DNA from: an uncultured Chloroflexia bacterium
Lineage (GTDB): Bacteria; Chloroflexota; Limnocylindria; QHBO01
Direction of reading: 5' to 3'
Length of the DNA: 64,000 nt
NCBI GenBank assembly: GCA_963799675.1
Contig: CAWCXQ010000007.1
Location: forward strand, 25,130 to 89,129
The number at the start of each line of letters is the position of its first letter. Position 1 is the stretch's first letter. Both the position numbers and the translations under genes were made by a program. The notes below the pieces were generated by a model. The model was not told the origin of the DNA. It did not search any database and worked only from the letters and a program-made list of their open reading frames with translations. Shown piece after piece: positions 2,094 through 3,516 of this stretch.

Positions 2094-2525
2094 ATGCCGA
2101 AGGACGCACCAGGCCGCGAACGGGTCATCTTCCTCTGCACTCACAACAGCGCTCGGTCGCAGATGGCCGAGGGGATGCTGCGGGCATGGGCGCCCGCAAG
2201 GTTCGAGGCGTTCAGCGCGGGCACCGTCCGGACGGCGCTCCGGCCCGAAGCGGTCGACGCGATGCGGGAGATCGGGATCGATATCGCCTCGCAGCAGAGC
2301 AAGTCGATCGACCAGCTCGGCGGCCGCAGCTTCGACCGTCTCGTGACGGTCTGCGACGAGGCGAGGGAGGCCTGCCCGACGCTGCCCGGCGTGCGACGGC
2401 AGGAGCACTGGCAGATCGACGACCCGTCCGCGGTGGGTGGCAGCGCCGAGGAGCGGATGGCCGCCTTTCGCCGCGCCCGCGACGATCTCGCCGAGCGCGT
2501 TCGCGGTATCGCGGAGGGCGGCTAG
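2094..2525 (+). CDS. arsC: Arsenate reductase, thioredoxin-coupled LMW-PTP family
   Basis: P-loop FLCTHNSARSQMAEG and resolving cysteines VTVCDEAREACP. Confidence 0.88.
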   Translation: MPKDAPGRERVIFLCTHNSARSQMAEGMLRAWAPARFEAFSAGTVRTALRPEAVDAMREIGIDIASQQSKSIDQLGGRSFDRLVTVCDEAREACPTLPGVRRQEHWQIDDPSAVGGSAEERMAAFRRARDDLAERVRGIAEGG

Positions 2526-2529
2526 CGCC

Positions 2530-2554
2530 GGCGCCGCGCGGGACGACCGGCGCC
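2530..2554. terminator. GC hairpin between convergent arsC and the Cys-rich peptide gene
   Basis: ggcgccg(2530-36)/cggcgcc(2548-54) stem; no poly-U tract. Confidence 0.35.
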
Positions 2555-2569
2555 AGCCGGGGGTTCAGC

Positions 2570-2629
2570 TCAGCAGCAGCCGGTCCTGCAGCAGTCGCCG
2601 CAGCACTCGCAATCGCATTCGGATCGCAT
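2570..2629 (-). CDS. 19-aa cysteine-rich metallothionein/phytochelatin-like peptide MRSECDCECCGDCCRTGCC (not in the ORF track)
   Basis: ATG CGA TCC GAA TGC GAT TGC GAG TGC TGC GGC GAC TGC TGC AGG ACC GGC TGC TGC TGA; ideal SD AAAGGAGGTG (GGAGG 8 nt before ATG); divergent from arsR. Confidence 0.8.
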   Translation of the reverse strand: MRSECDCECCGDCCRTGCC

Positions 2630-2648
2630 CGCGCCCACCTCCTTTCCG

Positions 2649-2700
2649 CGCTACACTATATCGATCAGTGTCAATATAGACAATCGCTGATATAGTAGCG
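2649..2700. promoter_or_regulatory. ArsR/SmtB operator and divergent promoter region
   Basis: AT-rich imperfect palindrome cgcta..ctatatc..tgtc-aatata-gaca..gatatag..tagcg; TATAGT (2691-96) lies 7 nt before the arsR ATG. Confidence 0.7.
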
Positions 2701-2703
2701 GCG

Positions 2704-2991
2704 ATGAAGACCGCTGACCCCGACGTTCTCCTTCTCTCTGCGCTCGCCGATCCCACGCGCCTCGAGATCGTGCGGCAGCTCGCCGCCGGCGGCGCCTGCG
2801 CCTGCGACTTCACCGATTGCTGCGGCGTCAGCCAGCCGACCATCTCGCACCACCTGAAGGTCCTGCGCGACGCGGGCGTGGTGCAGAGCGAGCGGCGCGG
2901 CACGAACATCTACTACTCGCTGGCGCCCTCGGTCGGTGGACGGTTCGCGGCGATCGGGGCCAGCCTGGCGGGACTCGTCCACCTGGGCTGA
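2704..2991 (+). CDS. arsR: ArsR/SmtB family metalloregulator
   Basis: ALADPTRLEIV, alpha3 CACDFTDCC, SQPTISHHLKVLRDAG, RRGTNIYY. Confidence 0.92.
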   Translation: MKTADPDVLLLSALADPTRLEIVRQLAAGGACACDFTDCCGVSQPTISHHLKVLRDAGVVQSERRGTNIYYSLAPSVGGRFAAIGASLAGLVHLG

Positions 2992-3012: not shown

Positions 3013-3516
3013 GTGAGCCTCACCGTCGCGTTGTGCCCGCACTGCGCGCGTCCGACCGAGCAGCCGTTGGTCTGCGCGCGGTGTGCGTGGCGCTGGTACG
3101 CGAATCCGAAGCCAGCCGCCGGAGTGATCCTCGAGCGAGATGGGTCGGTCCTCCTCCTGCGTCGGGCGGTCGAGCCCGGGATGGGCGCCTGGGACCTGCC
3201 GGCCGGATACCTGGATCCGGGGGAGTCCCCGGAGGAGGCTGCGCGGCGCGAGACGCGCGAGGAATCGGGCCTGGAGGTGGAGCTCGTGCGACTGGTGGGG
3301 GTCTACACCAGCCGCCCCGGCAACGCTGTCGCGTGCATCTACCTGGCGCGGCAGGTCGATCCATCGGCCGCGGTCCGGCTGGACGCAGAGTCGAGCGAGT
3401 ACGCATGGGTCGAGAGCGCACGGCTGCTCGACTGGCTGCCGCGGCTGGCATTCGGATCGATGGCCGCCGCGCTCTCCGACTGGCGCGCCAATCGGTCGGG
3501 TGAGCCGCAGTCCTGA
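3013..3516 (+). CDS. Zinc-ribbon Nudix hydrolase
   Basis: CPHC..CARC ribbon; Nudix box [22 protein letters not shown]. Confidence 0.88.

Follow-up and report, generated by a model that had tools for sequence, protein, structure and literature searches.

A candidate ArsR-controlled, cysteine-rich micropeptide encoded back to back with arsR in uncultured Limnocylindria

We analysed a stretch of 64,000 nucleotides (nt) from an uncultured Chloroflexia bacterium (GenBank assembly GCA_963799675.1, contig CAWCXQ010000007.1, positions 25,130 to 89,129), referred to below as the window, in which a minus-strand open reading frame (ORF) of 19 codons, the mini-ORF, lies back to back with a gene for an ArsR/SmtB-family repressor. 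We propose that this mini-ORF encodes a thiol-rich micropeptide that is derepressed by As(III) and that buffers arsenite or hands it on, a reading to which we give a probability of roughly 0.6. The host assembly is a metagenome-assembled genome (MAG) with an estimated completeness of 65%, derived from an uncultured soil Chloroflexota bacterium of Candidatus Limnocylindria.

The mini-ORF reads ATG CGA TCC GAA TGC GAT TGC GAG TGC TGC GGC GAC TGC TGC AGG ACC GGC TGC TGC TGA on the minus strand (window 2629..2570). Its product, MRSECDCECCGDCCRTGCC, is acidic, consists of Cys to 42% (8 of 19 residues; C5, C7, C9, C10, C13, C14, C18 and C19), has neither aromatic residues nor His and ends in CC-RTG-CC-stop. 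When both strands of the complete assembly (2,566,611 bp, 69% GC) were searched for complete ORFs (start to stop, 10-45 codons) containing five or more Cys and no less than 28% Cys, the mini-ORF was the sole match. The gene order in the window is upp, arsC>, <mini-ORF, arsR>, NUDIX (Table 1). A first-pass annotation of the DNA had described a 19-residue, eight-Cys ORF at 2629-2570 with an ideal ribosome-binding site, divergent from ArsR/SmtB and convergent with arsC. This description holds throughout: the letters of the window give the frame as described, the Shine-Dalgarno (SD) sequence AAAGGAGGTG stands 6 nt before the ATG, and matches to PF01022/NF033788 and PF01451 identify the two neighbouring genes. 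Its suggestion that gene callers skip this genuine gene owing to its size is likewise supported, and we attribute the fact that it was never annotated to that small size. Taken together, we regard it as very likely that the mini-ORF is a real gene, with translation predicted from its sequence.

To examine conservation, 80 loci carrying orthologues of the window ArsR (64-94% identity) in Ca. Limnocylindria MAGs were scanned for small ORFs. An SD-led Cys-rich ORF (12-26 codons, at least 4-5 Cys), composed mainly of Cys, Asp and Gly, was present in 23 of the 80 loci. The start codon is ATG or GTG, about 6-8 nt 3' of the SD core, which reads GGAGGTG in most loci and GAGGTG or GGAGG in three. Such a scan of arsR-adjacent DNA in relatives had been proposed along with the first description, and it found the SD, the frame and the Cys pairs conserved. 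A sister genome (G001) carries the orthologue MRSDADCECDCGECCRTGCC at the same place, and a member of another genus (G002) carries MRHESCDCDCCTDCCGGGCC, divergent from arsR-arsC. Comparison of the window and G001 ORFs shows a single 3-nt indel, which keeps the frame, as well as four synonymous changes and conservative D/E swaps; in the 3' flank the indels are of 1 and 4 nt and out of frame.

Together with the genomes from the pattern search described below, the scan of the ArsR loci yielded a family of 29 distinct peptides of 12-26 amino acids (aa), with 29-50% Cys and a net charge of 0 to -4; Cys, Asp and Gly make up 71% of all residues. All but one (28/29) end in CC-stop, and 18 of the 29 begin with MR. 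The E-C-D-C-E-C alternation of the window peptide is confined to its genus and a few others, and the family-wide features are Cys pairs, Asp/Gly spacers and the terminal CC-stop. What appears constrained is the placement of Cys, the composition and the reading frame of the ORF, not the identity of the spacer residues. A profile hidden Markov model built from three peptides and run on 400 genomes of the class gave convincing matches only for G000-G002; many more were recovered by the ORF scan of ArsR loci. A locus search with an alignment of three peptides matched 78 stretches, none of which was upheld by tblastn.

Crude gene calling, clustering and annotation of representatives with Pfam and NCBIfam sorted the loci into three ARRANGEMENTS, types A, B and C (Table 1). 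In two type-C loci, L043 and L078, the mini-ORF occupies the slot that is held by arsM in sister genomes, and in the third, L060, a hairpin lies between the mini-ORF and arsM. The best case for selection on the peptide itself is that an SD-led Cys-rich ORF persists through all three arrangements. We also considered that the mini-ORF may be a deletion remnant of arsM, whose Cys tail became joined to SD and start. This origin was rejected for lack of evidence, as a blastn comparison of the mini-ORF regions of L043 and L078 with the sister arsM loci gave only a 13-nt GCTGCTGCTGA match.

The region between the mini-ORF and arsR contains inverted repeats and two overlapping divergent sigma-70-like promoters, with two promoter-like sites observed against 0.1 expected from shuffled sequence. 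A palindrome, the presumed ArsR operator, extends over the spacer and into the -10 element of the mini-ORF promoter and also over the -35 element of the arsR promoter. The presumed inverted-repeat operator accordingly overlaps both promoters of the ArsR/SmtB gene and its divergent target, as is typical of a divergon, and the palindromic control region that the first-pass annotation had assigned to both genes is well supported. An alignment of the sequences 5' of arsR from the 80 loci gave the family motif ATATYGAY-N4-GTCRATAT. With up to two mismatches, it occurs once in the 2.57 Mb host genome, at window 2658-2677, and the genome scan found no copy upstream of the arsC-like gene. With at most one mismatch, it is present in 66 of the 80 orthologous loci (69 occurrences in 445 kb), 10-50 nt upstream of arsR in every case but L016. 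There (L016:1125-1230), the palindrome stands 36 nt 5' of the mini-ORF (MPRGCCDPDCCPGDCC) and 1.8 kb from arsR, which indicates that the operator travels together with the peptide gene. Between the window and G001, the palindrome boxes are conserved and the spacers differ. As the motif is single-copy in the assembled genome, the mini-ORF would be the only gene at the operator besides arsR, and hence its only non-regulatory one, unless the NUDIX gene that follows arsR is included, which is possibly co-transcribed with arsR. Binding of ArsR to the palindrome is predicted, and membership of the mini-ORF in the ArsR regulon appears likely. The -10 element of arsR ends 7 nt before its ATG and an SD is absent, so the arsR mRNA is probably leaderless or has a very short leader. 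An arsR without SD is therefore paired here with a divergent mini-ORF whose SD is near-perfect.

Several features of the loci point to arsenic. The window ArsR carries the thiolate motif C32-A-C34-D-F-T-D-C39-C40 in its alpha-3 region, which is invariant in three genera and which we take to resemble the alpha-3 As(III) site of R773 ArsR; a His/Glu-rich alpha-5 site is absent from its sequence. In 61 of the 80 orthologous loci, a gene of the arsM cluster directly follows arsR (representative: 289.9 bits against NF008823, arsenite methyltransferase, cut-off 263), and arsC, adjacent in the window, is a frequent neighbour in the other loci. The ArsM proteins of the lineage end in ...GCCGGSGCC-stop and have the CC-x3-4-CC-stop motif in common with the mini-peptides. 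Based on the ArsR thiolate motif, arsM in these 61 loci, the arsC neighbour and the ArsM tails, arsenic is the most likely effector and ligand, although both its role as effector and its binding by the peptide are predictions. The first-pass annotation had proposed a metal(loid)-inducible ultrashort thiol chelator for As(III), Cd or Zn. As a putative function this is still the best reading, whereas the Cd/Zn part is disfavoured, since the context (arsM in 61/80 loci behind the same operator) favours arsenic. As a separate observation, lineage ArsM proteins (L042:4080-4125 (+) and L049:3316-4140 (+)) also contain an N-terminal CCGDACC, and the tail may read ...GCCGGSGCC-stop or ...GCGCGDGCC-stop; motif and tails alike are similar to the free-standing mini-peptides.

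An arsM orthologue and ACR3 were not found in the host genome, which is 65% complete. ACR3 was also not found in any of the seven genomes with a mini-ORF (the host and six others, five genomes being at least 94% complete); two of the seven gave weak ArsB-family matches. Among four family members that lack the mini-ORF by strict peptide and pattern searches, two reached ACR3 scores of 241-243 bits, just under the cut-off of 282.8.

The mechanism we propose would operate as follows. In the absence of metalloid, an ArsR dimer on the palindrome at 2658-2677 would block both back-to-back promoters. As(III), or possibly Sb(III) or another soft metal, would bind to the thiolates of C32, C34, C39 and C40 and make ArsR leave the DNA. 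The transcript then produced, about 130 nt long and ending at the hairpin at 2519-2559, would be translated efficiently from the near-perfect SD. The resulting acidic 19-residue peptide with its eight thiols could bind As(III) in three-sulfur (S3) sites, at most two As each, and would lower free arsenite as a buffer or sink; in relatives, arsenite may be transferred to ArsM. In effect, the peptide would be a free-standing version of the CC-x3-4-CC tail of ArsM from the same lineage. A broader view, which we put forward only tentatively, is that the family represents an undescribed, widespread class of ribosomal 'arsenic-thiolate' micropeptides (12-26 aa, CC pairs, terminal CC). They might themselves be the resistance determinant, with sequestration or hand-off instead of efflux in Limnocylindria without ACR3, and might form a bacterial gene-encoded counterpart of the phytochelatins.

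Other readings have to be weighed against this proposal. The product may be a metallothionein proper for Cd, Zn, Pb or Cu(I), with the ArsR paralogue as a CadC/CmtR-like sensor: an M2-3 thiolate cluster resembling that of a metallothionein beta-domain could be built from eight thiols in 19 residues, the NF033788 match of ArsR is generic and accompanied by weaker similarity to CmtR (NF047906, 39 bits), the window locus has neither arsM nor an arsenite pump, and a related Cys-rich subfamily adjoins a MerR-type regulator (L163). We nevertheless consider this unlikely. In 61 of 80 loci, arsM comes directly after an arsR of the same orthogroup with the same Cys motif and operator; arsC is often a neighbour, as it is in the window, and no gene for a metal-efflux P-type ATPase or cation diffusion facilitator (CDF) was seen in the three arrangements. 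It appears less likely still that the product is a thiol redox or antioxidant peptide, or gives rise to a modified peptide, and that it is co-induced in the arsenic response so as to relieve oxidative or thiol stress instead of chelating. Arsenite does provoke thiol and oxidative stress, the product is essentially a thiol carrier and the adjacent arsC is of the thioredoxin-coupled type; however, no maturase (radical SAM, YcaO or LanM-like), exporter or dedicated reductase occurs in any arrangement, and the C-terminal CC pairs mirror the ArsM tails of the same lineage. Correspondingly, the neighbours (upp, arsC, arsR, NUDIX, arsM, DUF47, Pit, PstS-like and a major facilitator superfamily (MFS) gene) include no maturase as expected for a ribosomally synthesized and post-translationally modified peptide.

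Alternatively, the mini-ORF may be a regulatory Cys-sensing leader, in which pausing at the Cys codons tunes the downstream genes and the peptide has no function of its own. Mycobacterial polycysteine leaderless small ORFs (sORFs) act in this way, as attenuators that stand first in cysteine-metabolism operons and rely on ribosome pausing (bioRxiv 10.1101/834739). They are the closest bacterial Cys-rich sORFs, as these and the mini-ORF are all unannotated, about 20 codons long or shorter, rich in Cys and found in a high-GC bacterium, but the mini-ORF differs in being SD-led, ArsR-linked and often terminal or monocistronic. A leader would fit the 11 type-B loci, where the mini-ORF lies ahead of the DUF47-Pit-PstS-like genes on the same strand, and the hairpin in L060. 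In the window and the six other type-A loci, however, the mini-ORF has a hairpin behind its stop codon and a convergent gene next to it, and in L043 and L078 the mini-ORF is the final gene before the terminator, so that nothing is left to attenuate. The mini-ORF is also preceded by a strong SD instead of being leaderless, it is linked to arsenic rather than to cysteine-metabolism genes, and, at the level of the peptide, both the terminal CC-stop and the acidic spacers have been kept. We therefore judge a leader function to be very unlikely. Finally, spurious ORFs are numerous in high-GC genomes, and two long ones on the plus strand overlap the mini-ORF here, so that it could be a functionless chance ORF in G+C-rich DNA, with TGC arising where CTG/GCA-rich sequence is read in a shifted frame or on the complementary strand. 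This is hardly credible for the sole such ORF in 2.57 Mb, whose SD, start and stop are conserved across three arrangements and over 30 loci, particularly as the pattern controls elsewhere yielded no Cys-rich ORFs.

Some observations weigh against an As(III)-derepressed micropeptide. The ORF occurs in only 23 of the 80 orthologous loci, and the spacer residues of the family peptides evolve fast. Differences at codon positions 1, 2 and 3 number 16, 12 and 26 in six close pairs, three of which include one identical partner, and the third-position bias is weak. Some constraint may act at the RNA level, as the 3' end GGCTGCTGCTGA is conserved also at the nucleotide level. With a 65% complete genome, the missing pump or arsM in the host is not firm, and the ACR3 contrast is based on 11 genomes, small numbers that make it suggestive. 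Sensing of Cd, Pb or Zn through the thiolate site of ArsR is conceivable as well.

The peptide matched no known family. Pfam gave no family at E≤10 for eight family peptides, metallothioneins including PF02069 (SmtA/BmtA) being covered, NCBIfam gave no match to the peptide at E≤1, and in Rfam there was only a chance match (E=0.57, below the gathering score). Ten family peptides of 20-27 aa, namely the 22-aa GTG-extended form of the window peptide and nine relatives, were absent from about 15 billion predicted proteins, in a look-up that covers peptides of at least 20 aa. A full-text literature search found no description of ArsR-linked Cys-rich micropeptides. With its low mass, high Cys content and lack of aromatic residues, MRSECDCECCGDCCRTGCC has the properties by which metallothioneins are operationally recognized, and the 'mini-metallothionein' of the first-pass annotation stands to this extent. 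It stands outside any known metallothionein family, since there was no Pfam metallothionein match at E≤10, and is best described as metallothionein-like in working, with putative metal binding. As a class, the peptide appears to be an ArsR/SmtB-controlled thiol-rich binder that is tied to arsenic genes and is far smaller than, and non-homologous to, the known examples.

In its logic, the locus is closest to the smtB-smtA divergon of Synechococcus PCC 7942 (also BxmR-BmtA), in which an ArsR/SmtB repressor is paired with a divergent bacterial metallothionein. Both are transcribed back to back from one palindromic operator-promoter region, with derepression by the bound element, which is a prediction for the mini-ORF. 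SmtA, however, has about 56 aa, a zinc-finger-like fold and His ligands (PF02069), whereas the window peptide has 19 aa, no His and no Pfam match, and the window sensor has the alpha-3 thiolate site without the alpha-5 His/Asp/Glu site. With arsM as the partner gene in the regulons of relatives, the effector is likely to be arsenic and not, as for smtB-smtA, zinc.

In sequence character, the closest relatives are the tails of ArsM and ArsD and the small fungal metallothioneins. ArsD of the R773 type has vicinal Cys pairs in its C-terminal region. The CC-x3-4-CC-stop motif, the Gly/Asp-rich spacers and membership in an ArsR regulon are common to these tails and the mini-peptides, but the motif of the mini-peptide is free-standing, with its own SD and start and without an enzyme or chaperone domain. 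The ArsD domain (PF06953) is thioredoxin-like and spans about 120 aa with Cys12, Cys13 and Cys18, compared to 19 aa and no Pfam match here, and the likeness is limited to the Cys-pair tail. Among the fungal proteins, the Cu-metallothionein of Neurospora crassa has about 25 aa with 7 Cys and MMT1 of Magnaporthe about 22 aa with 6 Cys. Mmt1 is described as a metallothionein-like protein (PMC9036806). Like the window peptide, these are ribosomal, Cys-dominated peptides of about 20 residues without aromatics; the window family differs in being bacterial, ArsR-linked and acidic (Asp/Glu instead of Ser/Gly/Lys spacers), shorter (12-26 aa) and more Cys-rich (up to 50%), and is non-homologous. Phytochelatins, the main As(III) chelators of plants, are likewise short, acidic and thiol-rich, and their induction by metal(loid)s is predicted for the window peptide as well. 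They are, however, enzymatic products with gamma-peptide bonds, (gamma-Glu-Cys)n-Gly (PMC8041291), formed by phytochelatin synthase and not on ribosomes, whereas the window peptide would be an alpha-peptide made from an SD-led ORF. Phytochelatin mimicry, also proposed by the first-pass annotation, does not hold as a family feature because the E-C-D-C-E-C alternation is not conserved; the analogy is functional at best.

Bacterial arsenic resistance is usually framed around proteins of normal size that act in reduction, efflux, methylation and chaperoning. If true, an ArsR-controlled thiol peptide of about 20 residues would add a component of sequestration or hand-off that gene callers have overlooked. 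It would rank among the shortest gene-encoded peptides of metallothionein character, would be simple to synthesize and test directly, and might be of use as a compact As(III)-binding tag in biosensing or bioremediation. That the sole output of a metalloregulator operator can be a micro-ORF would also bear on how 'orphan' ArsR genes in MAGs are read.

Table 1 Features of the window and of the related loci (L numbers); positions without a locus are those of the window
Feature	Position	Strand	Details
arsC-like gene (low-molecular-weight protein tyrosine phosphatase, LMWPTP), thioredoxin type	2094..2525	+	PF01451; TIGR02691 125 bits, below cut-off 174; convergent with mini-ORF
G+C-rich hairpin	2519..2559		17-bp stem; between mini-ORF and arsC; starts 11 nt after mini-ORF stop; overlaps arsC stop codon
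Mini-ORF	2570..2629	-	19 codons + TGA stop (2570-2572); product MRSECDCECCGDCCRTGCC
Shine-Dalgarno sequence	2636..2645	-	AAAGGAGGTG; 6 nt 5' of mini-ORF ATG; near-perfect
Mini-ORF promoter-like site	2655..2683	-	-35 TTGTCT 2683-2678; 17-nt spacer; -10 TATAGT 2660-2655; 9/12 matches
Presumed ArsR operator	2658..2677		20-bp palindrome ATATCGAT-CAGT-GTCAATAT (= ATATCGAT-N4-GTCAATAT; ATATCGATCAGTGTCAATAT)
arsR promoter-like site	2668..2696	+	-35 GTGTCA 2668-2673; 17-nt spacer; TG-extended -10 TATAGT 2691-2696
ArsR/SmtB-family repressor gene	2704..2991	+	95 aa; PF01022 1.7e-16; NF033788 95.6 bits, cut-off 55
NUDIX hydrolase gene	3013..3516	+	21 nt 3' of arsR; same order in L046
Type A			Mini-ORF alone, divergent from arsR; loci W, L010, L011, L012, L046, L062, L066
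Type B			arsR>arsM> divergent from operon of 52-aa ORF, mini-ORF, DUF47 (PhoU_div), Pit (PHO4), PstS-like; 11 loci
Type C			arsR>mini-ORF>; L043, L078 (then G+C hairpin + ATTT); L060 (mini-ORF between arsR and arsM)
52-aa ORF of type-B loci	L021:2749-2904	-	Same position in L015, L018, L023, L024, L027, L044, L045, L055

Among the neighbouring genes, the arsC-like gene encodes a CX5R loop and a C-x6-C-P pair, as in thioredoxin-coupled ArsC. The hairpin between it and the mini-ORF has a centroid energy of -34.9 kcal/mol with a z of -1.9, a modest advantage over shuffled sequence, and is a probable two-way terminator without a U tract. The NUDIX hydrolase has an N-terminal CxxC...CxxC segment that resembles a zinc ribbon. 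Its closest NCBIfam models are a Deinococcus-type Nudix hydrolase (NF041652, 1.2e-13) and NAD(+) diphosphatase, both matched below cut-off.

In the type-B loci, the ArsR operator is followed not only by the mini-ORF but also by a phosphate-uptake operon of DUF47 (PhoU_div), Pit (PHO4) and PstS-like genes (L021:831-2490 (-) and ten further loci), which suggests arsenic-controlled phosphate/arsenate transport. These loci also contain another unannotated small ORF, of about 52 aa (MSLMIELLASAHEADLQRESHERRMKDAVTACRRRFFDVLKPERPCDPQLC), which is placed between operator and mini-ORF and has no Pfam or NCBIfam matches.

Beyond the ArsR loci, the strict pattern SD-ATG-...TGCTGCTGA was run on 400 evenly drawn Chloroflexota genomes. 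Cys-rich ORFs were found only in the window's own family (G000, G013, G025, G031 and G071); all other matches were Leu-Leu-stop or out of frame, and unrelated. A second run on 300 genomes from the class of a Gaiellales-labelled MAG gave two relevant ORFs, MRKACCDCEGCGCGCC (L139), whose divergent neighbour is an ArsR with 57% identity, and MHKACDCDSCGCGGGCC (L144), which adjoins a weak ArsR-like match; the architecture of the window is thereby also seen in another class. Among the matches listed from metagenome contigs were MDDCC..., MNDPCC... and MRNLDPCC... peptides, with ArsR homologues adjoining in five of six cases, and a subfamily of the form MC[ES]CC...CDGSCC....

In the L163 member of this subfamily (L163:357-863 (-)), the ORF of a MerR-family regulator continues without a stop into MCECCGTSSCDGSCCESECC, with an internal GGAGGTG-ATG just before the Cys-rich part, which could be the tail of the regulator or an overlapping micro-ORF. 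No ArsR was found near the peptides related to it in L197, L200, L215 and L226. Other SD-led micro-ORFs from metagenomes end in runs of eight Cys (L209:1061-1114, L227:9146-9199 and L232:1596-1664), for example MEDKKKRKHCCCCCCCC and MAKGGGGRGCCCCCCCC.

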